64,000 nt of DNA, taken from positions 188,760-252,759 of the forward strand of contig CAWEWE010000004.1 in NCBI GenBank assembly GCA_963812745.1, in the 5' to 3' direction. Position numbers and translations under genes: made by a program. The notes beneath the pieces were generated by a model. That model had not been told where the DNA came from, did no database searches, and saw only the letters and a list, made by a program, of their open reading frames with translations. This DNA is from an uncultured Chloroflexia bacterium (GTDB lineage: Bacteria; Chloroflexota; Limnocylindria; Limnocylindrales; CSP1-4). Shown piece by piece: positions 6,320-52,824 of the stretch (position 1 is the first letter of the stretch; every line of letters starts with the position of its first letter).

Positions 6320-7954
<1,635 letters not shown>

Positions 7955-8937: not shown

Positions 8938-9010
8938 GGCACTCCTCCTGCCAGGACCCCGATCGGGCCGAGCCCCGGCGATGCCGGGAGGCGATCGTAG
9001 CGAAACGGCG

Positions 9011-35690: not shown

Positions 35691-36239
35691 ATGACGTCGG
35701 CGCAGCCTGTGGTCATGAGCGACCCTCGACTGCCGCCGGGCATCCACATCCGCCCTATTCGGCGCGGCGACACCGTCGCGCTCGAGCGCTTCTATGCCGG
35801 GCTGTCGCCCGATTCGCTCGACGCGCGGTTCCATGGCGCGACTCGCGGCATCGAGGACCTGACGGCGCAGCTGTTCTGCGGGCCCGACCATCGCCACCGC
35901 GAGGGGCTGGTCGCTGTCGAACGTATGCATGCCGGGCGCGAGGTGATCGTCGGCCACCTCTGCCTGGAGCCGATCGACGGCACATCCGATCTCGAGATGG
36001 CCGTCGCGGTGGCCGACGCATGGCAGCGCCGCGGCATCGGCCGCGCCCTGCTCGCGGCTGCCATGGAGTGGGCTCCCGCCCATGGCGTCGCCGCGTTGCG
36101 CGCCGCGATCCGCTGGAGTAACCCGGCGATCATCGGCCTGCTGCGTTCGGTCAACCGACCGATGACGATCGTGAACGATGGCGGGGGTGATCTCGAGGCC
36201 GTCATCCAGGTCGGTGGCGAGATCCCGGTCGCGGCCTGA
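35691..36239 (+). CDS. GNAT family N-acetyltransferase
   Basis: Acetyl-CoA-binding motif WQRRGIGRALLAAAMEWA. Confidence 0.65.
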   Translation: MTSAQPVVMSDPRLPPGIHIRPIRRGDTVALERFYAGLSPDSLDARFHGATRGIEDLTAQLFCGPDHRHREGLVAVERMHAGREVIVGHLCLEPIDGTSDLEMAVAVADAWQRRGIGRALLAAAMEWAPAHGVAALRAAIRWSNPAIIGLLRSVNRPMTIVNDGGGDLEAVIQVGGEIPVAA

Positions 36240-36274
36240 CCCAAGTCGCTTGCAGAGCCCCGGACACGGACGAC

Positions 36275-36293
36275 GCGAGCCGTGTCGGCTCGC
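36275..36293 (+). terminator. Terminator-like hairpin downstream of the GNAT gene
   Basis: GCGAGCCG-TGT-CGGCTCGC (8-bp stem) with no U-tract, as is common in high-GC genomes. Confidence 0.35.
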
Positions 36294-36541
36294 GCGCAAA
36301 TCCGGGTTCAACGGCAGATGCCAAAGTATCCGCATCCCCATGTTCCACCAGGGCGAGCGAGGCCGGATGCGCTGCGAACGTCGGGGGCTGAGGTATTTGA
36401 AACCAAGTGCTGCCCCGATGCGATGTAGCGACGCGAATCAGAACATCGCGACGCCCCGGTGTCGGTCAACGGCGAACGGGCAGGAGCCGACCACGGGGGC
36501 GACGTCTGGCAGATGCGAGCCACCATCCCCGGCCCGTTGGA

Positions 36542-36916
36542 TCAGTGGTGCTTTTCGCTCGCGTCCGCCTCAGCCTTGGTGCGATGGATCGTTCCCTCGG
36601 CATGCTGAGGGGGTGCATAGACCGTATAGAGCTTGAGGTCGCCCGTTCCCGCATTCACCAGGTTGTGGCGAGTGCCCGCCGGCACGTGGACCAGGTGCCC
36701 GGGATGGACGGGGCTCCGCTGGCCCTCGAGCACAGCAAGCCCCTCCCCTTCGAGGCAGACAAGCACCTGATCGACGCGGTCGTGGACCTCCTCTCCGATC
36801 TCCCCGCCCGGCGGGATGCTCATCACGACGATTTGGCAGTGCGGCCCGGTCGAGAGCACCTCCCGGAACCAGCCGTTGGCCTTGGCGCGTGCCACGATGT
36901 CCTGGTTGAACGACAC
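36542..36916 (-). CDS. Cupin domain protein
   Basis: GGEIGEEVHDRVDQVLVCLEGEG ... PAGTRHNLVNAG cupin motifs. Confidence 0.65.
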   Translation of the reverse strand: MSFNQDIVARAKANGWFREVLSTGPHCQIVVMSIPPGGEIGEEVHDRVDQVLVCLEGEGLAVLEGQRSPVHPGHLVHVPAGTRHNLVNAGTGDLKLYTVYAPPQHAEGTIHRTKAEADASEKHH

Positions 36917-37266
36917 GTCGACCTCCTTGTAGCCCGAAGTCTCCCCACGCAGGCGGCCACTGACCAGAGCCGCATGGACCCAAACGCGAAGCGGAATGGG
37001 CCTCGTACTCGCGCCCTCGAAGCCTATGGTCTGTCGGCCGATGACGGCCTGAAGGCGGTGCAGCGGTGGCCGCCCAGCCGATCTGATCGAACATCGACAC
37101 TCCCGGCGGGCGTCCGAATCGGCAACGAGAACGACCTGGGCAAGTGGTTGATTTCGCGCTCGTTGTCGACCGCCGTGAAGTCACCCATCGCAACGTCGAA
37201 CGTTGGCAGCAATCGTTCCCTTGACGAATTCGAGCGCGGCACCGATGGCGCCGCGCCCGACACGGT

Positions 37267-37668
37267 TCAGCGTGCGACGACGACTGTCGCGGCCGCGTTG
37301 GTCGCGACGTGCTCGGACACGCTTCCTTGCATGATCCGACCGAGCGTCCCTAGACCGCGGGACCCGACGACGATCATGTCGAACTTCCCAGCCTCGGCGA
37401 TCTTCTCGATCTCCTTCGCAGGATCGCCCGCCGATTCGATCATCTCGGCCGCGATCCCGTTCTGGGTGAGCAAGTCCCGCGCCTCGCGCAGCTCCTGCTC
37501 ATGTACAGAGCGATCGTCCCACGGATCCACCGGCGAGCGCCCAGGATGCACCGGGACGACACTTACGACCGAGAGGCTCGCATCGAGCTTCTTGGTCAGG
37601 TCGATGGCGACGTCGAGCGCCTTCCGCGCGGGTGCTCCGCCATCGTAGGCCAGCAGAATGTTCTTCAT
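37267..37668 (-). CDS. Universal stress protein
   Basis: MKNILLAYDGGAPARKALDVAIDL...MIVVGSRGLGTLGRIMQGSVSEHVATNAAATVVVAR. Start at 37668 with AGGAGACGGG SD. The track ORF upstream extension is Arg-rich junk. Confidence 0.8.
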   Translation of the reverse strand: MKNILLAYDGGAPARKALDVAIDLTKKLDASLSVVSVVPVHPGRSPVDPWDDRSVHEQELREARDLLTQNGIAAEMIESAGDPAKEIEKIAEAGKFDMIVVGSRGLGTLGRIMQGSVSEHVATNAAATVVVAR

Positions 37669-37865
37669 CTCCCGTCTCCTCGTGCCTCCGCCCCTGCCGG
37701 CGATCCGGGGCCCGGCGCCGCGACAGGATGGCGTCCGGGCCCCGTTGAGTCGCCCTACGGTCCACTCGGTCCCGCTTGGACGGCTGTCATGCCGATCGTC
37801 GAGTTCCGGATGGACGGAGCCTAGAGCCGGGCGTCCCGAGTTCATAGGCGGTCTGGCAGGGTGGC

Positions 37866-38597
37866 CTACGCGACCCGCAGTGTCCGCCCGACGTCGGCGA
37901 GCAGCGCGGCGCCATCGCCCCACGCCGCCGGGTGATCCGGTCGCAGATGCGCGGCTTCGGAAAGCACGGTTCGCGCGAACGGCCGCAGGTCTCGAGCAGC
38001 GATCGACATGCCCCGGTGCCGCGCCGCTGCGTCCTGGATGAACGCGGCATATCGCGCCAGCGGCGTTGCGCGGGCCAGCTGCTCCTCGAAGCCCGGCACG
38101 TAATCGACCGTCACGAGCAGTCGACCGAAGAATGCACCGACGGCGTCGGCTCCTTCGTCCCATCCCTGGGAGTGCCCACCCCGGCGGAGGATCGGCGCCG
38201 ACGATGTGAACGCCACGATCGCCGTGCCGTCGATGAGCTCCGCATCGCAACGTCCACCGAAGCCGAGATAGCCGTTCGACTCGCCGAGACGGTCGAGGAT
38301 GCGGATCTCGCCCCACGAGACACCTGTCGAGAACGGCATTCGACTGTCACGGGTGATCGTCTGATGCGTGCCGCGACCTCCACGGCTCGACCAGAACTCG
38401 ACCACCTCGGGGTCGTAATGGCGGAGGGTCGGGCGCTCACGCAGCGCGACGATCAGCGACGCCGGCCCGGGTCGGTCGGGTAGGTCGGGATCCGCCAGGA
38501 AGCCCCACGGCTCAAGGCGGCGGGCAGCGGACTGCAGACTCGGTCGCGGCTCGCTGCCCCCTGGTGGGTCCGCTCGCGAGGAATCCACTGCAGTCAC
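37866..38597 (-). CDS. Hypothetical protein
   Basis: A 243-aa ORF with GC-rich third positions and a 4-nt overlap with the downstream GlsB-like gene. No motif recognised. Confidence 0.45.
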   Translation of the reverse strand: MTAVDSSRADPPGGSEPRPSLQSAARRLEPWGFLADPDLPDRPGPASLIVALRERPTLRHYDPEVVEFWSSRGGRGTHQTITRDSRMPFSTGVSWGEIRILDRLGESNGYLGFGGRCDAELIDGTAIVAFTSSAPILRRGGHSQGWDEGADAVGAFFGRLLVTVDYVPGFEEQLARATPLARYAAFIQDAAARHRGMSIAARDLRPFARTVLSEAAHLRPDHPAAWGDGAALLADVGRTLRVA

Positions 38598-38914
38598 GCG
38601 GACATCGGCCGGCGATGGAATGGGCTGCTGCCGGTAACGAAGCGACCGACCAGCGTGGCGAGCACACCGCCGATGAGCCCACCAAGCAGCGCCTCGTCGA
38701 AGGCGAGGCCATCCACGATCGGCTGGATCTCATCGATCGTCGCCGTGGCGAAGAGCGCCTCGCTCATGTATAGCCCGCCGACGAACCAGCCGGCCGCGCC
38801 GAGGACCCACAGCCACGGCGTCTCGGCTCGGCCGACGAGCTGGGCGACCGCGCCGAAGGCGAGCGCGACGATGACCAGGATGCCGAGCCCGGTCAGTCCG
38901 AGGTCGTACTGCAT
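38594..38914 (-). CDS. GlsB/YeaQ/YmgE family stress-response membrane protein
   Basis: Small Gly-rich membrane protein (GLGILVIVALAFGAVAQLVG...GAAGWFVGGLYM...GGLIGGVLATLVG). Paralogue of 61910..62227. Confidence 0.55.
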   Translation of the reverse strand: MQYDLGLTGLGILVIVALAFGAVAQLVGRAETPWLWVLGAAGWFVGGLYMSEALFATATIDEIQPIVDGLAFDEALLGGLIGGVLATLVGRFVTGSSPFHRRPMSA

Positions 38915-39131
38915 GTCGTCCGCGCTCCTTTCCCTGTGTGACGGACGTGTCCAAGCTCATGCTCGGAGGAAGGTCATCGAGCCGCCAGTGCCGTGTAGCG
39001 CTCCGCGAGAAGGCCGAAGTGCCTGATGTCCATCCCGGGCGACACGACGTGCCGGGCGGCTCCGGCGTTGGTGACAGATGGCCCGTGATGCCGCTTTCGC
39101 GGACCGGCACGATCGGCACAAGGAGCGTGCC

Positions 39132-39371
39132 ATGAGCGCAGGTGCCTTTCACGGACGCCGGGATCCCACGGAGCGCGCCTTGCGCGTGGAGGCGGGCGAG
39201 GTCGTCTGTCCGCGGCGCGGCCTCGTCGATATCGAGGATTGCTGGATCTGCCCGGACTACCGGGGATTGTCCGACGGGCGTGTCGAGTCGTTGATGTGTG
39301 GCCTGACCGAGGAAACGCTGGCCAGCGCGTACTGGGCGCTCGACCGCAGCCCTGGCTCGGATCGCGACTGA
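39132..39371 (+). CDS. Hypothetical small Cys-containing protein (79 aa)
   Basis: AAGGAG SD 6 nt upstream of ATG 39132. Sequence contains CPRRG...CWICPDY...MCGL. GC-rich third positions. Confidence 0.4.
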   Translation: MSAGAFHGRRDPTERALRVEAGEVVCPRRGLVDIEDCWICPDYRGLSDGRVESLMCGLTEETLASAYWALDRSPGSDRD

Positions 39372-39374
39372 GCC

Positions 39375-39845
39375 GTGATGGAGCGCCTGACCGAGCCACT
39401 CGTCGCCCTGATCGGTCGCCTGCTGCCCGGTCTGCCTGCGATCTCGATGCGGACCCTGGCCGCCATCGGCCGCGACGAGCGACCAGCGCCCGGAACCTTC
39501 CTCATGCGAGAAGGTCGCCCGACGCTCGACCTCGGTCTGATCGTCGAGGGCCGGCTGGCCGTGCGTGACCGGATCCGCCAGGACGACGTCACGCTCATGA
39601 CCCTCGAGGCCGGTGACGTCTTCGGCTGGTCGGCGGTACTCGACGGCGTCTCGACCGCGTCGATCGTCGCGCTCGACGGCGCGCGGGTCCTCTTGTTCAG
39701 GCGGGAGGCGATGCTTTCTGCGTTCGAGGGCGACAGTACGATCGCCATCGTCATCTACCGGCGCCTCCTCGAGGCGGTGGCGAGCCGACTCGATGCAACC
39801 CGCCTCCTCATGCGCGACGTGTATGCCGGGGGGCGCGCGTCATGA
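39375..39845 (+). CDS. Cyclic-nucleotide-binding (cNMP/CAP-effector) domain protein without a DNA-binding domain
   Basis: FLMREGRP..DLGLIVEGRLAV...LEAGDVFGWSAVL... resembles the cNMP-binding beta-roll. The stop overlaps the hydrogenase diaphorase start (ATGA). Confidence 0.55.
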   Translation: MMERLTEPLVALIGRLLPGLPAISMRTLAAIGRDERPAPGTFLMREGRPTLDLGLIVEGRLAVRDRIRQDDVTLMTLEAGDVFGWSAVLDGVSTASIVALDGARVLLFRREAMLSAFEGDSTIAIVIYRRLLEAVASRLDATRLLMRDVYAGGRAS

Positions 39846-41839
39846 CGGCAGCCCTACCGCCGACCGCTGCGACGACCGCATATCTGCCCCGGGGCGAGCT
39901 CGACCGTCTTCTCGCCGTGCTCAACGCCGACGGACGCACGGTCGTCGGTCCGACCATCCGCGATGGTGCCGTCGTGTACGCGGAGATCGCCGATGCCAGC
40001 CAACTTCCCGTCGGCTGGCGGGCTGACAGCGCGCCTGGCAGCTATCGGCTGGAGACCACCGCGCGCGATCGAGCCTTCGACTACGGCATCGCGGTGACCG
40101 CGTGGAAGCGGTTCACCCACCCGCCGCGCGTCCCACTCACGACGACGGGCCAGGACGGGCTCGTCGAGCCGGTCGAGCCGGATGTGCCGCGCGTGGCGTT
40201 CATCGGCGTGCGCGCCTGCGAACTGGCCGCGCTGGACATCCAGGAGCGTGTGTTTCGTGCCGGGCCCGCAGGTGACGCCGACCATGCCGCCCGGCGTGAG
40301 GCGAGCCTCGTGGTGGCCGTCGAGTGCGCGGTCGCGATGTCGACCTGTTTCTGCACGTCGATGGGCACGGGACCGGAGGTCAGCGACGACGCGGACATCG
40401 TCCTTGCCGAGCTCGACGACGGCTTCACGGTCCGGGCGCTGACGCCGGCGGGTGAGCGGATCGTCGCGATGCTTGGGCTTGGAGAGGCCTCGGTCGCACA
40501 GATCCGGTCCGCGGCCGCGCAGGTGGCCGGCGTCCGCGCCTGGATCGGCGACCCGGTACCCACCGAAGGGCTCGCGGAACGCCTGCGCGCCGCGCCCGAA
40601 CATCCCCGCTGGGCCGAGGTCGCGGAACGGTGCCTCGCGTGCACCAACTGCACGCTGGTCTGCCCGACCTGCTTCTGCACGAGCGTCAGCGTCAGCTCGG
40701 ATCTCGACGGCGTCAGCGGCGCGACCGAGCGGACATGGGATAGCTGCTTCACGCTCGGGTTCGGCCGGGTGGCTGGCGGTGCCAACTTCCGCCCGCGGGT
40801 CGCCGACCGCTATCGCCAGTGGCTGACCCACAAGTTCTCGACCTGGTGGGACCAGTTCGGGTCGACGGGCTGCGTGGGCTGCGGAAGGTGCATCACGTGG
40901 TGCCCGGTGGGCATCGACGTCCGCGAGGAGCTGCTCGCCATCGCGCCGCCAGGCGCCACCGCGGCGCCCGTGCCCTGGCCGCCCTCCCCCGCTGCCGGGC
41001 ACGCGCCGGCGCCGCTCGCGACCGTCGATCAGGCGCGCGATATGCCCGTCGAGGTCACCGCCGTCGGGCGTGAGACCGCCGATACCGTCACGCTCTCGCT
41101 CGCGACCGACGATCCTGGCCTGCTCGCGAGCCGCGCAGGACAGTTCGTCATGGTCGCGCGTGCCGCGCAGGCCGTGCCGCCCATCTCCATCTCACGCATC
41201 CGCTCGGATGGTCTGGACCTTACGATCCGCAAGGTGGGCCCGGCGACGGCGGCCCTCACCGCGAGCCAGCCCGGCGACCCTCTCTCGCTCCGCGGTCCGC
41301 TCGGCCGGCCGTGGCCGATCGAGTCGGCGTCCGGCGGCGACGTCGTGATCGTCGGCGGCGGCATCGGGTTGGCGCCCTTGCGACCGGTCATCGACGAGGT
41401 GATGCGCGAACGACATCGCTTCGGCGCCGTGCGCATCTACATGGGCGCGCGAACGCCGCACGACCGACTGTTCGTCGCTGAGATGGCGGCTCTCCGCGGT
41501 CGCACCGACCTGGAGCTCGAGGAGATCGTCGACCGCGGCGGACCGGAGTGGCTGGGCCGAGTCGGCGTCGTGACCCAGCTCTTCGAGCGGGCGACGTGGA
41601 CCGGCGAGCGGACCACGGCGTTCGTCTGTGGACCGGACCGGATGATGCAGGCCACGGCAAGGGCGCTCGCCGGCCGCGGCGTCGATCCGGGACGGACATG
41701 GGTGACGCTCGAGCGCAACATGGCTTGTGGGGTCGGGCTGTGCGGTCGCTGCCAGCTCGGACCGTACTTCGTCTGCCGCGACGGGCCCGTCTTCTCGGTC
41801 ACCGAGCTCGGCGACACCTTCACCGTGGAGGGTCGCTGA
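39842..41839 (+). CDS. Fused hydrogenase diaphorase subunit. The N-terminal Fe-S (HydB/AsrA-like) part is joined to a C-terminal FAD/NAD(P)-binding [2Fe-2S] (HydG/AsrB-like) part.
   Basis: Ferredoxin-type motifs CLACTNCTLVCPTCFC and CVGCGRCITWCP. An FNR-like fold (GGGIGLAPLRPV). C-terminal [2Fe-2S] motif CGVGLCGRC. Confidence 0.7.
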   Translation: MTAALPPTAATTAYLPRGELDRLLAVLNADGRTVVGPTIRDGAVVYAEIADASQLPVGWRADSAPGSYRLETTARDRAFDYGIAVTAWKRFTHPPRVPLTTTGQDGLVEPVEPDVPRVAFIGVRACELAALDIQERVFRAGPAGDADHAARREASLVVAVECAVAMSTCFCTSMGTGPEVSDDADIVLAELDDGFTVRALTPAGERIVAMLGLGEASVAQIRSAAAQVAGVRAWIGDPVPTEGLAERLRAAPEHPRWAEVAERCLACTNCTLVCPTCFCTSVSVSSDLDGVSGATERTWDSCFTLGFGRVAGGANFRPRVADRYRQWLTHKFSTWWDQFGSTGCVGCGRCITWCPVGIDVREELLAIAPPGATAAPVPWPPSPAAGHAPAPLATVDQARDMPVEVTAVGRETADTVTLSLATDDPGLLASRAGQFVMVARAAQAVPPISISRIRSDGLDLTIRKVGPATAALTASQPGDPLSLRGPLGRPWPIESASGGDVVIVGGGIGLAPLRPVIDEVMRERHRFGAVRIYMGARTPHDRLFVAEMAALRGRTDLELEEIVDRGGPEWLGRVGVVTQLFERATWTGERTTAFVCGPDRMMQATARALAGRGVDPGRTWVTLERNMACGVGLCGRCQLGPYFVCRDGPVFSVTELGDTFTVEGR

Positions 41840-42687
41840 TGCTGGCCTCGACAGCACCCCGTCAGGTCGCCCGGCACCGACCGCGTATCGGGGTGGTCAA
41901 GTTCGCGTCGTGCGACGGCTGCCAGCTGACGTTGCTCGACCTCGAGGATGACCTGCTGGCCATCGCCGACCGCGTCGACATCGTCGAGTTTGCCGAGGCT
42001 ACCTCGAACCGCTCATCCGGGCCGTTCGACATCCTGTTCGTCGAAGGCTCCATCAGCACGCTGGAGCAGGCGGAGGAGATCGTCCGGTTGCGGGGGGCGG
42101 CGACGACGCTCGTGACGATCGGGGCATGTGCCACGTCGGGCGGCATCCAGGCGCTGCGCAACTGGGCGGATCACGACGCGATCCGGTCGCTCGTGTACCC
42201 GCGACCGGACTACGTGGAGTCGCTCGCCACCGCCACGCCGATCGCCGATCACGTAGCGGTCGACGCGGAGCTGCGCGGCTGCCCCATCTCGCCCGACCAG
42301 CTGCGCGAGTTCGTCACCGCCACGCTCGTGCGACGCCGTCCGAACCTACCGGACGAGGCGCTCTGCGCTGAGTGCAAGCGGCGTGGCGTGGTGTGCGTGG
42401 CGGTCGCCGATGGCGTCACTTGCCTCGGCCCCATCACCAGGAGCGGCTGTGGCGCTCTGTGCCCAGCGTTCGGACGGGGGTGCTACGGCTGCTTCGGGCC
42501 ACGCGAGGGGGCCAACGGCCCGGGCCTCGCTGTCTGGCTTGGACGCACGAACGACGACGCCGACATCGCTCGCGCATTCGCCCTGTTCAACGCCTGGGCG
42601 CCGCCGTTCCGGAGCGTCATCGACGACGCGGGCGGCCCCCCAGGCCCCATCGACGGGTCGCCACCAAAGGAGCAACCCGATGCATGA
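41839..42687 (+). CDS. [NiFe]-hydrogenase small subunit (group 3 type)
   Basis: Proximal cluster motif FASCDGCQ and ...GACATSGG.... C-terminal Cys-rich cluster-binding region CAECKRRGVVCV...CLGPITRSGCGALCP. Confidence 0.75.
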   Translation: MLASTAPRQVARHRPRIGVVKFASCDGCQLTLLDLEDDLLAIADRVDIVEFAEATSNRSSGPFDILFVEGSISTLEQAEEIVRLRGAATTLVTIGACATSGGIQALRNWADHDAIRSLVYPRPDYVESLATATPIADHVAVDAELRGCPISPDQLREFVTATLVRRRPNLPDEALCAECKRRGVVCVAVADGVTCLGPITRSGCGALCPAFGRGCYGCFGPREGANGPGLAVWLGRTNDDADIARAFALFNAWAPPFRSVIDDAGGPPGPIDGSPPKEQPDA

Positions 42688-44002
42688 CGCCGTCGTGGCC
42701 CCGGGCGGCAGCGATCTCACCGTCGACGTGCGCAACCTGACCCGCGTCGAGGGCGAAGGGTCGCTGCACCTGCGGGTACGCGACGGCGCCGTCGAATCCG
42801 CACGCCTGGAGATCTTCGAGGCGCCGCGCTACTTCGAGCGACTCGTCGTCGGCCGGTCGATGGACGAGGTCATCGACATCGTGGCCCGCATCTGCGGCAT
42901 CTGCCCCGTCGCCTATCAGATGACCGCGGTCCACGCGGCCGAGGCCGCGTTCGGGATCACGGTCGATCCGGCGACGGTCGCGCTGCGTCGCCTGCTCTAC
43001 TGCGGCGAGTGGATCGAGAGCCACGCGCTCCACATCTACCTGCTTCACCTGCCGGATCTGCTCGGCTACCCGAGCGCGCTCGACCTCGCGCAGCACGATC
43101 GGGCGACGGTGGAAGGCGGGCTGCGGCTCAAGCGCGCCGGCAACACGATCGTGTCGCGCATCGGCGGTCGGGCGATCCACCCGGTGTCCGTTCGGGTCGG
43201 CGGGTTCTCGCGCGTCATCCGGCGCGACGAGATCGCGCCACTCCGCGCCGACCTGGAGGAGGCACAACGGCTGGCCGATGCGACGATCGACCTCGTCGCG
43301 GGCCTTCAACCGCCACCGTTCCGGCGGGAAGCGCGTCTCGTCGCGTTGCGTGCCGCTGACGAGTACCCGATGAACCATGGCCGCATCGTGTCGAACGACG
43401 GGCTCGACATCCCCGCGTCGGCGTGGGAGTCGATGTTCGAAGAGCGGCAGGTACCGTGGTCGCACGCTCTCCAGGCGCTGAGCCGCGACGGGCGCCCCTA
43501 CCTGCTCGGTCCGTCGTCGCGTGTGACGCTCGACAGCGACCGCCTGCATCCCCGGGCCGCAGACGCACTCGCTCGCCTGGATCTCGCCGACCGCATCGCT
43601 CACGAGCCAAACTGGAGCATCGCGGCGCGGGCTGTCGAGCTGGTCCACTCGGTGGCGGTGGCACTCGACATCGTCGATGCCTATGAGCCGCCGGCGGCGG
43701 GCGCGCTGCCGTGGCTGCCTAGCCCCGGGGTCGCCGCCTGGGCGACCGAGGCGCCACGAGGCCTGCTGTTCCAGCGGTTCCGACTCGACGGCGACGGTCG
43801 CGTCATGGAAGCCCGCATCGTCCCGCCGACCAGCCAGAACCAGGCGGCCATCGAGGCCGACCTGGCGCTCTTCGCGCCGACGATCCTGGATCGTCCGCAC
43901 GCCGAGGTGACGCACCTCCTCGAGGCGCTCATCCGCAGCTACGACCCGTGCATCAGTTGTGCGACGCACTTCCTGGATCTCGAGGTGGAGGACCTGCCAT
44001 GA
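42680..44002 (+). CDS. [NiFe]-hydrogenase large subunit
   Basis: N-terminal Ni-binding RICGICP and C-terminal DPCISCATH motifs. AAGGAG SD. An 8-nt overlap with the small subunit. Confidence 0.85.
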   Translation: MHDAVVAPGGSDLTVDVRNLTRVEGEGSLHLRVRDGAVESARLEIFEAPRYFERLVVGRSMDEVIDIVARICGICPVAYQMTAVHAAEAAFGITVDPATVALRRLLYCGEWIESHALHIYLLHLPDLLGYPSALDLAQHDRATVEGGLRLKRAGNTIVSRIGGRAIHPVSVRVGGFSRVIRRDEIAPLRADLEEAQRLADATIDLVAGLQPPPFRREARLVALRAADEYPMNHGRIVSNDGLDIPASAWESMFEERQVPWSHALQALSRDGRPYLLGPSSRVTLDSDRLHPRAADALARLDLADRIAHEPNWSIAARAVELVHSVAVALDIVDAYEPPAAGALPWLPSPGVAAWATEAPRGLLFQRFRLDGDGRVMEARIVPPTSQNQAAIEADLALFAPTILDRPHAEVTHLLEALIRSYDPCISCATHFLDLEVEDLP

Positions 44003-44568
44003 CTGCCGTACTCGACATCGCCCCGGCCGTTCGTCCACCGGACATCCATGACGGTCTGGACGTCGGCCCACCCGTCCCCACGATCCTCGTCGAGGTCCTC
44101 GCGTGCGGTGCACCCGATCGCGGCGATGACGCTGCCGGGGTGATCGCCGTCGGACGGCTCGCCGATGCGCTGCCCGACGACGTCCGCACGCGGATCGTCG
44201 GTCAGCTCGATATCGACGATCTCCTGGCCGTCCCGGCGGGCGCCGGGGCGATCGTCGTGGATACCGCCCTCGGCGTCGACCCAGGCTGGATCGTCGAGAT
44301 CCCATTCAGCGGACTCGCTGGCCGCGAGTCAGGCATCCGCCCGCGGTCATCACACGCACTCTCGATCCCCGAGACCATCGCCGTCGCTTCGATCATCCGC
44401 GGCCGACCGCTGCCCGGGATGGTCGTGGCCATCGGCGGCATCGACTTCGGGCTTGGGGAGGCGCTGAGCTGGCCGGTCACCGCGGCGATGGACGCCTTCG
44501 TCCTGGCGATCGACGACGCGATCAGACGCGTCCGGGCGCTTGTCGTGGGCACCACACCGGCGCGCTGA
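43999..44568 (+). CDS. Hydrogenase maturation endopeptidase (HycI/HoxW family)
   Basis: ILVEVLACGAPDRGDDAAG...AIVVDTALG matches the protease pattern (GN..xxDDG ... D[AT]). ATGA overlap with the large subunit stop. Confidence 0.65.
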   Translation: MTAVLDIAPAVRPPDIHDGLDVGPPVPTILVEVLACGAPDRGDDAAGVIAVGRLADALPDDVRTRIVGQLDIDDLLAVPAGAGAIVVDTALGVDPGWIVEIPFSGLAGRESGIRPRSSHALSIPETIAVASIIRGRPLPGMVVAIGGIDFGLGEALSWPVTAAMDAFVLAIDDAIRRVRALVVGTTPAR

Positions 44569-44583
44569 CCGGTCCCTGGTGGG

Positions 44584-44601
44584 CCGTGCCGAACGGCACG
44601 G
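44584..44601 (+). terminator. Weak hairpin (CCGTGCCG-AA-CGGCACGG) between the hydrogenase operon and the PFOR operon
   Basis: Seen in sequence. The loop is very tight, and the function is uncertain. Confidence 0.25.
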
Positions 44602-44656
44602 AGTAACGGGCCGGACGCCACATTCGTCCCGGTGACGGCCCCGGCACGCTTGGACC

Positions 44657-46648
44657 ATGAGCAACGGTTCGTTGCGGCCGACAGTCCGTTACCCCGGCAT
44701 CCCCTCGATCGTCGACGGATCCGAGGCGATCGCCCACGTCGAGACGCGCTTGTCCGAGGTGGCCTGCGCGTACCCGATCACGCCGTCGACCACGATGGCC
44801 GCCGTGTTCCAGTCGGCCGTGGCCAATGGCCTAACGAATCTCTGGGACACGCCCCTGCGGTTCGTGGAGCCCGAGTCCGAGCACAGCTCCGCGTCGGCTG
44901 CCGAGGGCGTCGCGCTGGCCGGCGGTCGCGTCACCAACTTCACGGCTGGCCAGGGGCTGGTGCTGATGAAGGAGGTCCTGTACGTCATCAGCGGCAAGCG
45001 GCTGCCCGTGGTGTTCCACGTCGGCGCTCGGGCGCTGACCAGCCAGGCGCTCAACATCCACGCCGGTCACGACGACGTGATGGCGGTGGCCGACACGGGC
45101 TGGGGGATCCTGTTCGCCCGGAACGCCCAGGAGGCCGCGGACCTGACCGCCATCGCTCGCCGCGTCGCCGAGGCGACCGAGACGCCGTTCTTCGTCGTCC
45201 AGGACGGGTTCCTCACGACCCACACGCTCGAGAACGTCCTGCTCCCCGAGGACGAGTTGCTGCGCGAGTTCGTCGGCGACCCGCGACAGCGGATCCGCTC
45301 GATGTTCGAGCCGGCCGAGGCGCTGATGACCGGTGTCGTCGAGAACCAGGACAGCTACATGAAGGGCCGCATCGGCCAACGCGCCTATTACGACCGGATC
45401 CGTCCGGCCCTGGACGAGGCGTTCGCACTCTGGGCTTCATTGACGGGCCGGACCTACCTCCATGTTCGTGACCATCGGTGCAGCGATGCGGACGAGATCG
45501 TCGTCTCGATGGGCACGATCGACGACACCGCGGTAGCCGTGGTCGATGCGCTTCGAGGCGAGGGTCGGTCGGTGGGCTGCGCCGCGGTCACGACCTTCCG
45601 GCCATTCCCCGCGGCGGATCTCCGGCGCATCCTCCGACGGGCGCGAACGGTCGGGGTCGTCGAGCGAACGGATGAGCCCGCGGCAGCCGACAACCCGCTG
45701 ACCCGCGAGACGAAGGCCGTGTTGTACGGCGCCGCCGCCGAAGGCGTTATGGTGCCGCGGGTCCTGTCGGTGTCGGCCGGCCTCGGGTCGCGCGACGTCG
45801 GCGCGGGCGATCTCGCCGCAGTGTTCGACTGGCTTTCCCAACACGGCGAACGCGCGCGCGACTACGCCGTGGTCGGCATCCGCCATCCGCTGGCGCTGCC
45901 AGCCCGTCCGATCGACGTGCGGCCCACAGGGGCGTACTCGCTGCGCGGACACTCGATCGGCGGCTTTGGCTCGGTGACGACGAACAAGCTCATCGCCACG
46001 ATCGTCGGCGAGGTCTTCGGCAAGCACGTCCAGGCGTATCCGCGCTACGGCTCGGAGAAGAAGGGCCTCCCGACGACGTACTACCTCACGATCGCGGACG
46101 AGCCGATCCACACGCACGCCGAGCTCGACCGGGTCGATATCGTCCCGCTTCACGACGTATCGGCCTTCGGCCTGGGCGATCCGCTCGCGGGTCTGGTCGA
46201 CGGCGGCACGCTCTTCCTCCAGTCGGTGCTGACCGACCCGGCGGCCATCTGGGCGTCGATCCCGGTCGTCGCGCGGGCCGACATCGTCCGCCGCCGGATC
46301 CGGGTGACCGCGCTCGACACCGCAGGCCTGGCTCGGGCCAGATCGCCTCGCCCGGATCTTGTTCTGCGGATGCAGGGCATCGCGTTGGTCGGCGTCTTCC
46401 TGCGGGTAGCGCCATTCGCCGCCGAAGCCGGCCTCGATCGGCGAGCACTGCTGGCGGCCGTCGGCGAGCGGCTCGGCCGTTTCTTCGGCAAGCGCGGTCG
46501 CGCCGTGGTGGACGCCAACCTCGAGCTGGTCACTGCCGCCTACGACAGCGTGATCGACGTCAGCCAGGCGCTGGGTCTGCCAGCGGGTGTCGAGCGTCAT
46601 GTCACCGTCCGCACCCAGCCACCGAGCCTGATCGGAGCCACGCCATGA
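44657..46648 (+). CDS. Pyruvate (2-oxoacid):ferredoxin oxidoreductase, fused alpha (PorA) and gamma (PorG) domains
   Basis: GSEAIAHVETRLSEVACAYPITPST (POR N-terminal), ...TAGQGLVLM..., and a gamma-domain C-terminal half. Length 663 aa. Confidence 0.8.
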   Translation: MSNGSLRPTVRYPGIPSIVDGSEAIAHVETRLSEVACAYPITPSTTMAAVFQSAVANGLTNLWDTPLRFVEPESEHSSASAAEGVALAGGRVTNFTAGQGLVLMKEVLYVISGKRLPVVFHVGARALTSQALNIHAGHDDVMAVADTGWGILFARNAQEAADLTAIARRVAEATETPFFVVQDGFLTTHTLENVLLPEDELLREFVGDPRQRIRSMFEPAEALMTGVVENQDSYMKGRIGQRAYYDRIRPALDEAFALWASLTGRTYLHVRDHRCSDADEIVVSMGTIDDTAVAVVDALRGEGRSVGCAAVTTFRPFPAADLRRILRRARTVGVVERTDEPAAADNPLTRETKAVLYGAAAEGVMVPRVLSVSAGLGSRDVGAGDLAAVFDWLSQHGERARDYAVVGIRHPLALPARPIDVRPTGAYSLRGHSIGGFGSVTTNKLIATIVGEVFGKHVQAYPRYGSEKKGLPTTYYLTIADEPIHTHAELDRVDIVPLHDVSAFGLGDPLAGLVDGGTLFLQSVLTDPAAIWASIPVVARADIVRRRIRVTALDTAGLARARSPRPDLVLRMQGIALVGVFLRVAPFAAEAGLDRRALLAAVGERLGRFFGKRGRAVVDANLELVTAAYDSVIDVSQALGLPAGVERHVTVRTQPPSLIGATP

Positions 46649-47073
46649 ACGCGAGTCCACAGACCGGTCGCCCGGTGACCGTTGGCGACCTGATGGCGAA
46701 CGATCCGATCGTGGTCCGCCCCGACGCCTCCCTGACCGCTGCGGCCCGACTCATGGACGAGTACGACATCAGCGGGCTCCCGGTGGTCGCCCCGGCCGGC
46801 CGGGTGATCGGGGTGATCAGCGAGACGGACCTGGTCCGCGCGCGCGCCACGGAATGGCTGTGGGCGAACTGGACGGGGCTCAAGGTCAGTCACCTCATGT
46901 CCAGCCCGCCACTCACCATCGGACGGTCCGCCTCCCTCCAGACCGCGGCGATCAAGATGGAGGACAACCACGTGCATCGGCTCGTCGTGGTCGCCGATGA
47001 TGATCCGCAGCTCCCGATCGGCGTCATCTCGACCAGTGACGTCGTACGCGCCCTCACGGGGGGCGACAGATGA
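46645..47073 (+). CDS. CBS-domain pair protein
   Basis: Two CBS motifs (VTVGDLMANDPIVVRPDASL...; VSHLMSSPPLTIGRSASL...HRLVVV). Both the start and the stop overlap the PFOR genes by 4 nt. Confidence 0.7.
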   Translation: MNASPQTGRPVTVGDLMANDPIVVRPDASLTAAARLMDEYDISGLPVVAPAGRVIGVISETDLVRARATEWLWANWTGLKVSHLMSSPPLTIGRSASLQTAAIKMEDNHVHRLVVVADDDPQLPIGVISTSDVVRALTGGDR

Positions 47074-48758
47074 CCGCCGACCTGCGATCCCCACTGACGA
47101 AGGAGGCCGGAGCCCTCAAGGAGCAGCACGAGGCCGAGCTCGCGATCGCGACCCCGCTGTTCGATATCCAGTCGTACGTCGAGGAGTTCGGCGCATCGAT
47201 CGTTCCGGCCTACCGCCGTGGTGTGGCGGACGAGGAGTGGCCCGCGGACGTCGGCCTCGCGCGGAGCGTCATCCCACCCGGCACGGCCGCGGTCCGTGAC
47301 TTCAGTCGGCTCGCGCCCCGCCTGCCGCAGTTCGTTGCCGAGCGATGCGTCGGCTGCATGGCGTGCGTCAGCGCCTGCCCCGACAGCGCGATCCTGGGGA
47401 TCGCCGTTCCCGAGGGAGACCTCGCGGAGCGCGTCGCCACGTTCGCCGCCGAGGAGCGCACGCCAGACGTTGCCGGTGAGTCGGCACAGGCACATTTCGT
47501 CCATACAGCCAAGTACGCGGAGGTCCCCGCGAAGCGCGGCCTCGAACCGGCGAGCTTCGGGATCTTCATCGAGCCGATCCACTGCAAGGGCTGCGCCGAG
47601 TGCGTCGAGGTATGTGCGGCGCTGGGCCATGACGCCCTGTTCATGGCAGACAAGTCGGACGAGGATGCGACCGGCGAGACCGTGCTCGACCGTGCGATGC
47701 GCGACATGCGCTTCTTCCGATCGCTGCCGCCGACACCTCCGGCATACCGCAACGAGAAGGCCCTCGCCGACCTGATGCTGGGCGAGCATGCGATCGGGTA
47801 TGTCGGCGGCGCCGGCTCGTGCGCGGGCTGCGCGGAAGCGTCGGCGATCCGGATGATGGTCGCGGCGACGCGGCAGGTCCACGGCCCGGAGTCGATGGGC
47901 ATCGTCGCCGCGACGGGCTGCAACAGCGTCTTCGGGAGCACGTATCCGTTCAATCCATACCTCGTCCCATGGACGAACTCGTTGTTCGAGAACGCGCCGG
48001 CGGTGGCGGCCGGGATCCGCGCCCGCTGGGACCAGGCGGGCCACCCGGAGCGCAAGTTGTGGGTGATGGGCGGCGACGGGGCGATGTACGACATCGGCTT
48101 CCAGGCGTTGTCCCGGATGGTTGCCTCGGGCGCCGACATCAACGTCCTCGTGCTGGACACGCAGGTCTACTCCAACACCGGCGGGCAGGCGTCGACAGCG
48201 TCCTTCGGCGGTCAGGTCACCAAGCTGACCGCGTTCGGTTCGGCAGAGCATGGGCGTCCCGAGGCGCGCAAGGAGCTGGGCCGGATCCTGATGGCGCACG
48301 GCAACGCCTATGTCGCCCAGACGACGCCCGCCCACCTGAACCACTTCTACCGCTCGGTGATGGAGGCGAACGCCTTTCCGGGCCCCGCGGTCGTCATCGT
48401 CCATACGGCGTGCATGCCGGAGCACGGCATCGCCGACGACGCGGCGTCGCGGCAGGCCAAGCTGGCCGTCGACTCGCGGGCGTTCCCGCTCTTCACGTAC
48501 GACCCGCGGCGCGGCACGACATTCGCCGAGCGGCTGTCGCTCCAGGGCAACCCCGCCTTGCGCGAGGACTGGTCGGCGCTACCGGGCGGGCAACGCATCG
48601 ACTTCCTGACCTTCGCCCGATCCGAGGGCCGGTTCGGTCCGCACTTCGGGACGGACGGCGCGCCGAGCGTGGAGATCCAGGCGACGCAGGCGGACCGCCT
48701 GGCCAACTGGCGGACGCTCCAGGAGTGGGCCGGCTTTCGCCCGACGGAGGCTGGCTGA
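47070..48758 (+). CDS. Pyruvate:ferredoxin oxidoreductase, fused delta (2x[4Fe-4S]) and beta (TPP-binding) domains
   Basis: CVGCMACVSACP and CKGCAECVEVC ferredoxin motifs. TPP motif GDGAMYDIGFQAL...VLDTQVYSNTGGQ. Confidence 0.85.
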   Translation: MTADLRSPLTKEAGALKEQHEAELAIATPLFDIQSYVEEFGASIVPAYRRGVADEEWPADVGLARSVIPPGTAAVRDFSRLAPRLPQFVAERCVGCMACVSACPDSAILGIAVPEGDLAERVATFAAEERTPDVAGESAQAHFVHTAKYAEVPAKRGLEPASFGIFIEPIHCKGCAECVEVCAALGHDALFMADKSDEDATGETVLDRAMRDMRFFRSLPPTPPAYRNEKALADLMLGEHAIGYVGGAGSCAGCAEASAIRMMVAATRQVHGPESMGIVAATGCNSVFGSTYPFNPYLVPWTNSLFENAPAVAAGIRARWDQAGHPERKLWVMGGDGAMYDIGFQALSRMVASGADINVLVLDTQVYSNTGGQASTASFGGQVTKLTAFGSAEHGRPEARKELGRILMAHGNAYVAQTTPAHLNHFYRSVMEANAFPGPAVVIVHTACMPEHGIADDAASRQAKLAVDSRAFPLFTYDPRRGTTFAERLSLQGNPALREDWSALPGGQRIDFLTFARSEGRFGPHFGTDGAPSVEIQATQADRLANWRTLQEWAGFRPTEAG

Positions 48759-48988
48759 TGTGCCTGACGTTCCCGGGTGAGGTGGTCGCGCTGGACGGCC
48801 TGGAGGCCGTCGTCCTGACGGACGGCCGGCTCCGTCGGGCAACCACCCTGGGCCTACCAGACGCCGCGGTCGGCGACCGGGTCGTCGTGGCCGCCGGATC
48901 GATCATCGCCCGACTCGACACCCAGCAAGCGGATGACATCGAGCGACTCGTCCGGGTCGCGCGAGGAGACGAAGGAGCAACGACATGA
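48758..48988 (+). CDS. hypC: Hydrogenase maturation factor HypC/HupF
   Basis: Begins MCLTFPGEVV, matching the HypC signature MC(L/I)(A/G)(I/V)P. 76 aa. The start overlaps the PFOR stop. Confidence 0.7.
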   Translation: MCLTFPGEVVALDGLEAVVLTDGRLRRATTLGLPDAAVGDRVVVAAGSIIARLDTQQADDIERLVRVARGDEGATT

Positions 48989-49929
48989 TCGCGGTCAACG
49001 GCTCGCGCCCGTGGCGGGCGCTGACCATCCCACGGACCCGGGCCATCGGCCTGTGCCTCGCCGCCGCTACGGCGACGATCAGCGGGGTGTCCGTCTTCAT
49101 CAACGCCGCGGCCGTCAAGCACGTCCCGGACGCCGCCGTGTTCACGACGTTGAAGAACGCGGTGGCGGTCGCCCTGCTCCTTGCGGTCGCCGTGGCCGTC
49201 GTCCGCCCGGCGGAGGTCCGGGCCGTAAATGCGCGGGATCGGGCCCGGCTCGTGATCATCGGCACGCTCGGCGGCGGTGTCGCGTTCCTGCTCTTCTTCT
49301 CCGGTCTGGCGATGGCCAGTGCGCCGTCGGCCGCATTCATCCACAAGACGATGTTCCTCTGGGTCGCACTCATGGCCGGCCCCTTCCTGGGCGAGCGCCT
49401 GGGCTGGGCACCGATCGCGGCGCTCGGCGTGCTCCTCCTCGGCCAGGTCCTGATCCTCCCGCCGCTCGGTATCTCATGGGGCACCGGCGAGACGCTCATC
49501 GCCATCGCGACCGGCCTGTGGGCCATCGAGGTCGTCCTCGCGCGGCGCGTTTTGGGCCGCGTGCGATCGCCCATCGTGGGCGTCGCGCGACTGGGCATCG
49601 GCCTCGTCGTCCTGGTCGGTTTCCTGATTGTGACCGGACGGATCGCCGGCATCGCCGCTCTCGATGGCACGGCCTGGCTGTGGATCGCGATCACCGGGCT
49701 GTTCCTCTCGGGCTACGTCGGGACCTGGCTTGCGGCCATTCGTCGGGCACCGGCCACGGAAGTGACGTCGATCCTCGTCGTCGGCGCAGTGATCACCGGC
49801 GCGCTGACAGCCATCTCGCGCGGTGCCGTCCCGGACCCGTTGACGGCCGGCGGGTACCTGCTGGTGGCGATCGCCGTCGTCGGGCTGGCGGGTCTCGGCT
49901 CGCGACGCCCGGCACCAGTCATCGCCTAG
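48985..49929 (+). CDS. EamA/DMT family transporter
   Basis: Ten predicted TM helices in two 5-helix repeats. 314 aa. Confidence 0.65.
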   Translation: MIAVNGSRPWRALTIPRTRAIGLCLAAATATISGVSVFINAAAVKHVPDAAVFTTLKNAVAVALLLAVAVAVVRPAEVRAVNARDRARLVIIGTLGGGVAFLLFFSGLAMASAPSAAFIHKTMFLWVALMAGPFLGERLGWAPIAALGVLLLGQVLILPPLGISWGTGETLIAIATGLWAIEVVLARRVLGRVRSPIVGVARLGIGLVVLVGFLIVTGRIAGIAALDGTAWLWIAITGLFLSGYVGTWLAAIRRAPATEVTSILVVGAVITGALTAISRGAVPDPLTAGGYLLVAIAVVGLAGLGSRRPAPVIA

Positions 49930-49936
49930 GCCGCAG

Positions 49937-50725
49937 ATGGCCACATCGAGCCTGGTCCCACCGCCCGAGCGCCAGAGGATCGCGCGCCCTCCCGCGTCGG
50001 GCCCGGTCCTGTTCGCACGATACGCCTACGGGCCGAACCGCTACGGCTACTGCGGTCCGGATGACGCCGACGAGCTCCTCGAGGCCGGGGCGGCAAACCA
50101 GGATCCGATCCTTCGCAACCTCGCGAGCAAGTTCGAGGGCGCGTATCCCTACCTCGCCCTGATCGCCCGGTCCAATGGCATACCCGACCCGCTCGACCGA
50201 CGCGTGGTCGAGGCGTACTGGCTGGGCAACGACCTGTTGGCAGCCGTGCCGATCGGAGCCCTGGGTGCGTCCCTCGATGAACGATTCCGGGCGCGCCTGC
50301 GATCGGACGACTGGCGCTGGTTGGCCAGCAAGCCGGTGAGCGGAGCGCGTCCGGTCCACGCGTTCCACGTGCTGGACGTGTTCCCGCGCGTCGGACTGAT
50401 CCGCGGAGGACGGGTCGATGGGATCCTCGAGATCATGGATTCGTGTCGCATCCGGTGGGGGCGCGTGCTGGAGCGGATCGGCGACCAGCTCATCGTCTCG
50501 GCCACGCGGCTCGAGCTCGTCGAAGGGCAGCTTCGGCATGGCAAGCCCGCGCCCGAACGCGTCCAGGCGTGGCGCGATGCGACTGGCTTCATCGACGTTC
50601 CTGAGCCGGGTGACGCAGTGTCCATCCATTGGTCGTGGGCGTGCGATCGACTGGACGCACGACAGCTCATGAACCTCGTCGCCTGGACCGACCGTCAGCT
50701 TCTGATCGCGAACCAGACCATCTGA
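49937..50725 (+). CDS. Conserved hypothetical protein
   Basis: A 262-aa ORF with genome-typical codon usage. Contains YAYGPNRYGYCGPDD. No assignable domain. Confidence 0.45.
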   Translation: MATSSLVPPPERQRIARPPASGPVLFARYAYGPNRYGYCGPDDADELLEAGAANQDPILRNLASKFEGAYPYLALIARSNGIPDPLDRRVVEAYWLGNDLLAAVPIGALGASLDERFRARLRSDDWRWLASKPVSGARPVHAFHVLDVFPRVGLIRGGRVDGILEIMDSCRIRWGRVLERIGDQLIVSATRLELVEGQLRHGKPAPERVQAWRDATGFIDVPEPGDAVSIHWSWACDRLDARQLMNLVAWTDRQLLIANQTI

Positions 50726-50730
50726 GGGCG

Positions 50731-52539: not shown

Positions 52540-52673
52540 CCCACTTGCTGGGTTGTCCCTGCCGATCGATGTCGACCCAGGCCTTGCGGTTGTAGGCGTA
52601 CTCGTTCTTCCAGCGGCCGCGCGCGTCCTGCTTCGCAAGCAGCCAGCCGATCGCGCTGACATCGTCACAGCGG
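52494..52673 (-). pseudogene. Gene remnant: C-terminal fragment of an unidentified protein (...SAIGWLLAKQDARGRWKNEYAYNRKAWVDIDRQGQPSKWVTL...) with no start codon
   Basis: A 59-codon stop-to-stop ORF on the minus strand with coding-like composition. It is antisense to the malic enzyme 3' end and missing from the ATG-anchored track. Confidence 0.3.
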
Positions 52674-52824
52674 CATCAAGCCCCGGGGCATCCGGGCCTG
52701 AGGAGCCGAACGGCCCACTGATGGGTGACGTTTGCCCCTCGAACTGCCGTCGCCGGACGCCCAGGATGCGCGTCAAACCGGACTACGCGGACCGGACGAG
52801 GCGGATCGCGCCGAGGTGGTCACC

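Follow-up and report, generated by a model that had tools for sequence, protein, structure and literature searches.

A group 3b [NiFe]-hydrogenase locus with a fused beta-gamma diaphorase subunit and a conserved cyclic-nucleotide-binding-fold partner in an uncultured Limnocylindria bacterium

The hydrogenase genes and the fused diaphorase subunit

The window considered here, a stretch of 64,000 nucleotides (nt) with a G+C content of about 70% from contig CAWEWE010000004.1 (assembly GCA_963812745.1), contains a compact [NiFe]-hydrogenase locus at 39375-44568. Five genes lie there on the + strand. In order, they encode a protein with a cyclic-nucleotide-binding (CNB) fold, a fusion of the beta and gamma diaphorase subunits, the small subunit, the large subunit and a maturation protease. 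Each gene overlaps the next, by 4, 1, 8 and 4 nt in turn, and the junctions as read in the sequence are ATGA, TGATG, ATGCATGA and ATGA. An earlier note on this DNA, made from the letters alone, had given the coordinates, the five open reading frames (ORFs) and the overlaps correctly in every detail, and its suggestion that the genes are translationally coupled is supported by the overlapping junctions. The nearest relatives of the window are metagenome-assembled genomes (MAGs) of Candidatus Limnocylindria/CSP1-4 (Chloroflexota), and the host is a soil bacterium. The same gene order was found again in 80 independent genome loci, an arrangement that recurs far beyond chance.

The CNB-fold gene (39375-39845, +) encodes 156 residues when translated from the GTG at 39375, or 155 residues from the ATG at 39378, as in public record P0271; PF00027 is its only Pfam domain (5.1e-11). 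The fused HyhB-HyhG diaphorase subunit (39842-41839, +) has 665 residues and carries the Pfam domains Fer4_22, NAD_binding_1 and DHODB_Fe-S_bind. It is followed by the small (delta) subunit HyhS (41839-42687, +; 282 residues, PF01058, Oxidored_q6) and the large (alpha) subunit HyhL (42680-44002, +; 440 residues, PF00374, NiFeSe_Hases). From the reading of the junctions, the true start of the small subunit is the ATG at 41839 and that of the protease the ATG at 43999, and the ATG of the large subunit at 42680 has AAGGAG ahead of it. The last gene of the five, the hydrogenase maturation endopeptidase (43999-44568, +; 189 residues), scores 53.8 bits on TIGR00072, for which the cutoff is 47.45 bits.

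The earlier note had assigned the enzyme to the cytoplasmic group 3 [NiFe]-hydrogenases. The large subunit does not fall outside that group, and the NCBIfam and PDB rankings both bear out the assignment as group 3b. Among the NCBIfam models, the large subunit scores 253 bits on ShyA and 238 bits on HydA, as against 138 bits on FrhA and 120 bits on VhuA. Its best match in the PDB is the alpha subunit of P. furiosus SHI (1.9e-66, 228 bits), followed by the T. kodakarensis cytosolic hydrogenase 5yxy (3.9e-63), whereas Mvh of group 3c (3.4e-43, 152 bits), the NAD-reducing SH of group 3d (1.2e-37, 134 bits) and Frh of group 3a (2.5e-34, 123 bits) score much lower. The large subunit and all its partners thus match group 3b, the sulfhydrogenase or Hyh type, best. 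Since all the module scores lie under the NCBIfam equivalog cutoffs, the enzyme is a distant bacterial member of this class.

The large subunit has the two CxxC pairs of the Ni-Fe site, C72/C75 (RICGIC) and C424/C427 (DPCISCATH), and a ten-residue C-terminal tail past His430, which fits the presence of a maturation protease gene. The small subunit has 12 Cys residues, the first cluster Cys being residue 25, and matches ShyD (2.7e-40) and HydD (1.3e-38) in NCBIfam. Its N-terminus, MLASTAPRQVARHRPRIGVVKFASC, holds no long signal peptide, as judged from the sequence and the position of Cys25 without a dedicated predictor, and no cytochrome b gene was seen in the cluster in the ORF list or the Pfam scans. 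As expected of a cytosolic enzyme, there is neither a Tat signal on the small subunit nor a membrane subunit. All four modules of a 3b enzyme are found, namely alpha, delta, beta (the AsrA-like Fe-S module) and gamma (the FAD, NAD(P) and [2Fe-2S] module). Because the large, small, beta and gamma matches and the structure model all agree with SHI, the locus is judged to encode a complete group 3b enzyme with its beta and gamma subunits fused, and NAD(P)H-coupled H2 activity is predicted for it. Group 3b enzymes are among the most widespread hydrogenases of soil and aquatic bacteria and are behind hypoxic H2 production in mycobacteria. To our knowledge, all that is known of their structure comes from archaeal four-subunit enzymes.

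The 665-residue gene had been read in the earlier note as a HydB/AsrA-like module joined to a HydG/AsrB-like module, with alignment to P. furiosus HydB/HydG and to AsrA/AsrB proposed as a check. Each module matches its counterpart in both pairs. In the PDB matches 9nez_B and 9nez_C, residues 75-360 match the beta subunit of SHI (1.2e-40) and residues 430-656 match the gamma subunit (2.7e-38), so that a single reading frame holds the two modules in full. Comparison with the anaerobic sulfite reductase gives 1.2e-33 for beta against AsrA and 8.3e-43 for gamma against AsrB. However, these matches score far under the family cutoffs, an AsrC sirohaem subunit is absent, and the partners of the fused protein are [NiFe] subunits.

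The beta (poly-[4Fe-4S]) module spans about residues 14-368 and contains CxxCxxCxxxCP motifs at C264-C274 and C344-C354, along with further Cys residues; its clusters are assigned by motif only. A disordered Pro/Ala-rich linker of about 30 residues, at about residues 368-400, leads into the gamma module (about residues 400-665), which has an FNR-like FAD/NAD(P) domain with GGIGLAP at residues 506-512 and a C-terminal four-Cys [2Fe-2S] motif formed by C629, C634, C637 and C645. NCBIfam matches to the fused protein comprise HydB, ShyB, HydG, ShyC, AsrA and AsrB. The four best PDB matches of its AlphaFold2 (AF2) model are SHI gamma chains, with template-modelling (TM) scores of 0.76-0.78, and SHI beta chains, with TM scores of 0.72-0.73. 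The predicted local distance difference test (pLDDT) score is low at the cofactor loops and falls under 50 at residues 377-389 of the linker.

A word-indexed protein search collected about 8000 candidate relatives of the fused subunit, and the best 120 of them are near-full-length homologues of 569-672 residues, nearly all between 651 and 672. The full-length fusion is present in the 80 genome loci, mostly from Limnocylindria, at 50-87% identity. The fusion is thus one real gene, and these loci rule out an assembly artefact. In an exhaustive search of representatives at 50% identity, stand-alone beta subunits of about 370 residues make up most of the relatives, and fused forms of 598-773 residues recur at 29-56% identity. 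The fusion also occurs in Pseudomaricurvus alkylphenolicus (Gammaproteobacteria), in Geoalkalibacter subterraneus (Thermodesulfobacteriota) and in a Syntrophomonadaceae/Bacillota MAG, in each of which group-3b-type small and large [NiFe] subunit genes come directly after the fused gene. Because fused forms fall into at least three separate clusters of a rough neighbour-joining tree of beta modules, built without support values and with fragments scored as split, repeated fusion, fission or transfer is suggested. No paper reporting the beta-gamma fusion was found in the literature searched, and this architecture, common in the data, is apparently undescribed. The novelty of the locus was nevertheless overstated in the earlier note, since the fusion is abundant in public data and CNB proteins in 3b clusters had already been remarked on (PMC11879354, PMC12319191, PMC13332983).

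Two of the 80 records, L014 and L017, are labelled as Verrucomicrobiia and Candidatus Sulfotelmatobacter MAGs and have fused subunits that are 69-71% identical, in the same gene order. Among records that are otherwise from Chloroflexota, the pattern suggests mis-binning or a recent transfer.

The archetype of group 3b, the P. furiosus SHI or sulfhydrogenase (HydBGDA; PDB 9nez and 9nf0), shares with the window enzyme the four modules, the Cys motifs and the NAD(P)/FAD domain. In the window, however, beta and gamma form one polypeptide and genes for the CNB-fold protein and the protease are added. Identity is only about 30%, and the host is a high-GC member of the Chloroflexota, not a hyperthermophilic archaeon. 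The identical order of CNB-fold protein, fused beta-gamma subunit, small subunit, large subunit and protease is found in Pseudomaricurvus alkylphenolicus (GCA_011683955.1), where the fused subunit (670 residues, WP_167000795.1) is 42% identical to that of the window. Hyp genes come after the protease gene there. The cluster differs from that of the window in its gammaproteobacterial host and in having no pyruvate/2-oxoacid:ferredoxin oxidoreductase (PFOR). The Pseudomaricurvus cluster is generically annotated, and no characterisation of it was found.

The CNB-fold partner

A CNB-fold gene lies directly 5' of the fused gene in 79 of the 79 related loci that have upstream DNA. Of these, 77 were found by tblastn and two apparent exceptions by the hidden Markov model of the family; the 80th locus begins inside the fused gene. 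The stop of the CNB-fold gene overlaps the start of the fused gene in 66 of the 77 loci, by 4 nt in 50, by 1 nt in 14 and by 7 nt in two. Whether the fusion and its neighbour are conserved in relatives had been raised in the earlier note; the fusion is kept in all 80 loci, and its linkage to the CNB-fold gene is the most strongly conserved feature of the locus. The sequence of the CNB-fold protein itself diverges faster than those of the enzyme subunits, with a median identity of 39% as against 60-70%.

A family profile built from 74 Limnocylindria members recognises the 3b-linked partners of three other lineages well, scoring 102.9 bits for Pseudomaricurvus, 102.6 bits for Rhodococcus and 92.7 bits for Burkholderia. 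The same profile gives 44.5 bits for the CNB domain of human PKG, 38.6 bits for C. necator HoxI and 26.7 bits for E. coli CRP, the CRP sequence having been entered by hand. The three 3b-linked partners align to the profile over nearly their full length, including the C-terminal RLxATRLxxLDxY helix. By this measure, the partner is a distinct family that is tied to bacterial 3b operons and found only beside beta and gamma genes. It is taken to be distinct from HoxI, rather than orthologous to it, because the 3b partners score 93-103 bits and HoxI 38.6 bits.

The Hyh operons of M. smegmatis (Hyd3, MSMEG_3931-3927), Rhodococcus, Frankia and Burkholderia have the 3b class and translational coupling in common with the window, and the partner in Rhodococcus and Burkholderia belongs to the same CNB family. 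In the actinobacterial and proteobacterial operons, beta and gamma are separate with the CNB-fold gene between them (PMC11879354; PMC13332983), whereas in the window the CNB-fold gene stands ahead of the fused gene. On Burkholderia and Rhodococcus plasmids, the intervening gene overlaps both of its neighbours. In one metagenomic contig, the CNB-fold gene lies ahead of separate beta and gamma genes. With the Rhodococcus protein as query, the word-indexed search returned only Rhodococcus, Nocardia and a few MAGs. The gene was noted in passing between beta and gamma in the 3b cluster of Frankia (PMC11879354) and likewise noted in that of R. equi (PMC13332983), and a paper on methanotrophs labels the 3b-linked CNB protein HoxI (PMC12319191). 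In public annotations, many family members of 150-170 residues bear the name 'Crp/Fnr family transcriptional regulator' or 'CRP-like cAMP-binding protein', even though a DNA-binding domain and the residues that contact cNMP are both missing from them.

The AF2 model of the window protein (pLDDT 84.8) has the standard CNB beta-barrel and a 30-residue C-terminal helix, residues 121-151, which resembles the dimerisation helix of CRP. Foldseek places the model with a probability of 1.00 among the CNB domains of PKG, PKA and Epac, and CRP is also among the best matches. Neither the Pfam scan nor the model, which ends in the one long helix, contains a helix-turn-helix or other DNA-binding domain. 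In HMMER alignments with PKG I and mycobacterial Pat, the phosphate-binding cassette FGE...R(T/S)A reads FGW85...S93TA in the window protein. Trp occupies the position of the cassette Glu in 74 of 74 relatives, and the Arg is replaced by Ala or Ser in 73 of the 74. In the orthologues from Rhodococcus and Burkholderia, Val or Ala stands in place of the Glu and Trp in place of the Arg; the Pseudomaricurvus protein also has the GWS motif. CNB-fold proteins that lack the Glu and the Arg, such as CooA, FNR, CprK and the CNBHD of KCNH channels, typically bind other ligands or none. The window protein, by its cassette, probably does not bind cAMP or cGMP in the canonical way.

HoxI, which belongs to the soluble NAD-reducing hydrogenase of C. 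necator (group 3d), is likewise a stand-alone CNB protein of about 160 residues whose gene belongs to a soluble hydrogenase operon. It binds loosely, as a dimeric subunit, to that enzyme, HoxHYFUI2 (PMC3189943), and is reported to bind NADPH and to mediate activation by NADPH (Burgdorf et al. 2005, as cited in PMC12319191). HoxI orthology of the window protein was considered and rejected, since profile score, identity, gene position and hydrogenase subgroup all differ. The two proteins are 27% identical over 120 residues (BLASTP), and HoxI scores lower on the family profile than human PKG does. HoxI retains the cassette Glu that the window protein lacks. Its gene follows that of the protease and is not next to those of the diaphorase, and its enzyme has a Complex-I-type diaphorase. 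A tblastn search of plasmids with the CNB protein did not retrieve pHG1, the HoxI plasmid, at E <=0.01.

Of the 69 related loci with sufficient DNA downstream, eight (L061, L062, L063, L064, L066, L067, L070 and L074, at about 7500-11000 in each) encode the CNB-fold protein, the fused beta-gamma subunit and a small subunit of the 3b type, yet neither a 3b large subunit nor a protease. They thus have a diaphorase-plus-delta module that lacks its catalytic partner. In L061, a lactate/malate dehydrogenase gene is next. In L070 (10983-17517), the module runs directly into a second hydrogenase gene set, which consists of a HoxE/NuoE-like gene, an uncharacterised stretch at the expected place of HoxF, an ORF with a ferredoxin-like N-terminus (by eye), a second small subunit gene, and a gene for a large subunit whose best score, 408 bits, is on VhuA. 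A further locus, L087 (7846-9634), has CNB, beta, gamma and delta genes and then NuoE-like and NuoF-like genes. In L070 and L087, two diaphorase systems may serve one [NiFe] dimer. Because some of the loci without alpha continue into HoxEFUYH or a lactate/malate dehydrogenase gene, the CNB-beta-gamma-delta module may plug into other catalytic partners.

Neighbouring genes and regulation

The hydrogenase genes belong to a + strand run that is nearly gap-free from 39132 to about 52539. At its start is a small four-Cys protein of about 79 residues (39132-39371, +; the mechanical ORF begins at 39078), which has AAGGAG 6 nt before its ATG at 39132 and a stop 3 nt ahead of the CNB-fold gene. It has no Pfam match. 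By tblastn, it is found at the same place, just 5' of the CNB-fold gene, in the 12 closest loci only, with 52-69% identity. C44, C55, C58 and C74 are invariant in the alignment, which has the pattern CPxxG...CWxC...C. In the sub-clade of the window, the operon probably begins with this gene.

A PFOR gene set starts 88 nt past the protease gene and consists of three genes joined by ATGA overlaps, identified by Pfam (POR_N, PFOR_II, POR, CBS, Fer4 and TPP_enzyme_C) and NCBIfam. The PFOR alpha-gamma gene (44657-46648, +) and the PFOR delta-beta gene (47070-48758, +) enclose a gene for a CBS-pair protein (46645-47073, +). This arrangement is kept in relatives, for example L001, L038 and L046. A PFOR homologue is found at some position in 23 of the 80 related loci; in 13 it comes immediately behind the protease gene. 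Next come genes which Pfam identifies as a HypC chaperone (48758-48988, +), an EamA-family transporter (48985-49929, +) and a DUF6390 protein (49937-50725, +). Of the 63 loci with at least 7 kb of downstream DNA, 47 have HypC, 48 have EamA and 39 have DUF6390. Because this trio accompanies the hydrogenase in most related loci, a hydrogenase-related role is suggested for the DUF6390 and EamA proteins. No other hyp genes were seen near the HypC gene of the window. The run ends with a malic enzyme (50731-52539, +; Pfam malic and Malic_M, 6e-74), which probably starts at the ATG at 50731, the mechanical ORF beginning at 50629.

Upstream of the hydrogenase genes are a universal stress protein (USP) gene on the opposite strand (37267-37737, -; Pfam) and a cupin gene. 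More distant are an uncharacterised ORF of 142 residues (55108-55536, +), known from the ORF list only, and a GAF/HisKA_3 histidine kinase with a NarL/LuxR-type response regulator (62403-63937, -; Pfam). The domain make-up of this pair resembles that of DosS/DosR. The kinase pair and the USP would fit a hypoxia-type regulon; no shared operator motif for such a regulon was found in the window. The near-palindrome ACGGACGTGTCCAA at 38941, in the divergent intergenic region, was considered as a DosR-like box and dropped. With up to three mismatches it has 14 matches, as against 7.4 expected, none of them at an informative position, and the inverted-repeat search was uninformative. A consensus scan of 38400-49200 found no promoter-like sites. 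The four terminator-like hairpins in the same interval are all intragenic, and their number is near the shuffled expectation. Rfam at gathering thresholds gave no match in 36000-53000. In other bacteria, the surroundings of Hyh genes are likewise related to stress or fermentation, with USP, CBS, and phosphoenolpyruvate (PEP) synthase or PFOR genes in the actinobacterial and proteobacterial neighbourhoods; USP, CBS and PEP synthase are the neighbours in the Rhodococcus and Burkholderia clusters.

Proposed function and alternative readings

On balance, the locus probably encodes a complete, NAD(P)-linked group 3b hydrogenase that has the CNB protein as an accessory or regulatory subunit and disposes of reductant as H2 under O2 limitation. 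By comparison with P. furiosus SHI, electrons would pass reversibly from NAD(P)H through FAD, the [2Fe-2S] cluster and the clusters of beta and then of delta, in this order, to the [NiFe] site, and the fusion would merely fix the ratio of beta to gamma at 1:1. The CNB protein would be made in step with the diaphorase subunit. We infer, by analogy, that it associates with the enzyme, and it could be an accessory or regulatory subunit dedicated to the beta-gamma module, to which it would bind, probably as a dimer. What it senses may be something other than a cyclic nucleotide; HoxI, though not an orthologue, makes a pyridine or adenine nucleotide the most plausible ligand by analogy. The malic enzyme would be the source of NADPH and of the pyruvate that PFOR would oxidise, and excess reductant would be shed as H2, as the neighbouring genes and the Hyh enzyme of M. 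smegmatis suggest. H2 disposal of reductant when O2 is scarce is most likely the main role, because PFOR, malic enzyme, USP, CBS and HypC genes are neighbours and because M. smegmatis Hyh, a hypoxia-induced and H2-evolving 3b enzyme (PMC2799521; bioRxiv 10.1101/2023.09.11.557286), offers an analogy.

Several points weigh against this reading. Confidence in the AF2 model of the fused subunit is only moderate (pLDDT 71.7), and a structure search with the CNB model found no solved hydrogenase structure that holds a similar chain. We know of no classical 3b enzyme that uses reduced ferredoxin, the product of PFOR. The fused 3b-type clusters of Geoalkalibacter and the Bacillota MAG have no CNB partner, and no CNB gene appears in the Hyd3 gene table of M. 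smegmatis (PMC2799521); the partner is therefore not required by all 3b enzymes. In addition, the degenerate cassette may be compatible with a non-canonical mode of cyclic-nucleotide binding.

It is possible, but doubtful, that the enzyme works mainly in the other direction, oxidising H2 to supply NAD(P)H rather than evolving it. Catalysis by group 3b enzymes is bidirectional, and for methanotrophs it has been proposed that H2 drives the generation of NAD(P)H (PMC12319191). However, the neighbours in the window, PFOR, malic enzyme and USP, are catabolic or fermentative, and the best-studied bacterial homologue evolves H2 in hypoxia (bioRxiv 10.1101/2023.09.11.557286).

The CNB protein might also be an assembly or maturation factor for the Fe-S/flavin diaphorase that stays outside the mature enzyme. 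Its gene is coupled tightly to the beta and gamma genes, rather than to those of the [NiFe] subunits, and is kept in loci with beta, gamma and delta but without alpha. This role is nonetheless unlikely, as no Fe-S or flavin assembly factor with a CNB fold is known to us. HoxI, the only characterised hydrogenase-linked CNB protein, is moreover a subunit of the finished enzyme, to which it is loosely bound (PMC3189943).

The earlier note had suggested that the CNB protein might place H2 metabolism under allosteric or cAMP-linked control, as a true receptor of cAMP or cGMP would. The protein does pass the Pfam threshold for cNMP_binding (42.8 bits on PF00027, where the cutoff is 27.5 bits), and its best structural neighbours are cGMP- and cAMP-bound CNB domains. 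However, because the cassette lacks both ligand-holding residues, with Trp85 in place of the Glu and Ser93 in place of the Arg or Lys, control by cyclic nucleotides is not supported. The same loss throughout the Limnocylindria relatives, and of both residues in the Rhodococcus and Burkholderia orthologues, makes such a receptor quite improbable.

Of similarly low probability is a pyruvate-to-H2 module, in which the hydrogenase would take its electrons from the ferredoxin-like domain of the adjacent PFOR and not from NAD(P)H. The PFOR genes lie close behind the protease gene on the same strand, PFOR is linked in more than a quarter of the related loci, and a separate ferredoxin gene was not noticed among the cluster genes examined. 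On the other hand, the NAD(P)-binding domain of gamma is intact, the position of PFOR varies and most loci lack it, and the characterised 3b enzymes are NAD(P)-linked, PDB 9nf0 being an NADPH-bound SHI complex. Finally, it is hardly credible that the CNB protein is a Crp/Fnr-type transcription factor controlling the operon, even though database annotations of its relatives say so and the Frankia paper names it a small transcriptional regulator (PMC11879354), because it has only 156 residues, with PF00027 alone and a barrel plus one long helix but no helix-turn-helix, and because a gene set among structural genes with a 4-nt overlap is atypical of a regulator.

The NAD(P)-linked hydrogenase with an accessory CNB subunit, the reading favoured here, belongs to an ordinary enzyme class, and both the fused layout and the conserved CNB partner with its non-canonical pocket are widespread. 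Many bacteria use a fused beta-gamma subunit, and a CNB partner without the cyclic-nucleotide contacts travels with the diaphorase genes in at least four lineages. The labels 'Crp/Fnr transcriptional regulator' and 'HoxI' that databases give to the CNB family are thereby corrected. If the partner proved dispensable, the locus would be one more 3b operon of uncultured Chloroflexota, and the central question is whether bacterial group 3b hydrogenases have a fifth subunit in the CNB family. A tentative extension of this idea is that the 3b enzymes of O2-exposed lineages (Limnocylindria, Mycobacteriales, Frankia, Burkholderia, Pseudomaricurvus and methanotrophs) may be five-component enzymes. In these, an obligate and probably dimeric CNB protein with an aromatic, non-cNMP pocket would sit on beta-gamma, sense the pyridine-nucleotide or redox state, and gate or reactivate the enzyme. 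If this is true, the CNB protein would be a convergent counterpart of HoxI, without equivalent in archaeal or strictly anaerobic 3b enzymes. The fusion and its CNB partner are thus a testable candidate for the regulation or stabilisation of 3b enzymes in aerobes.

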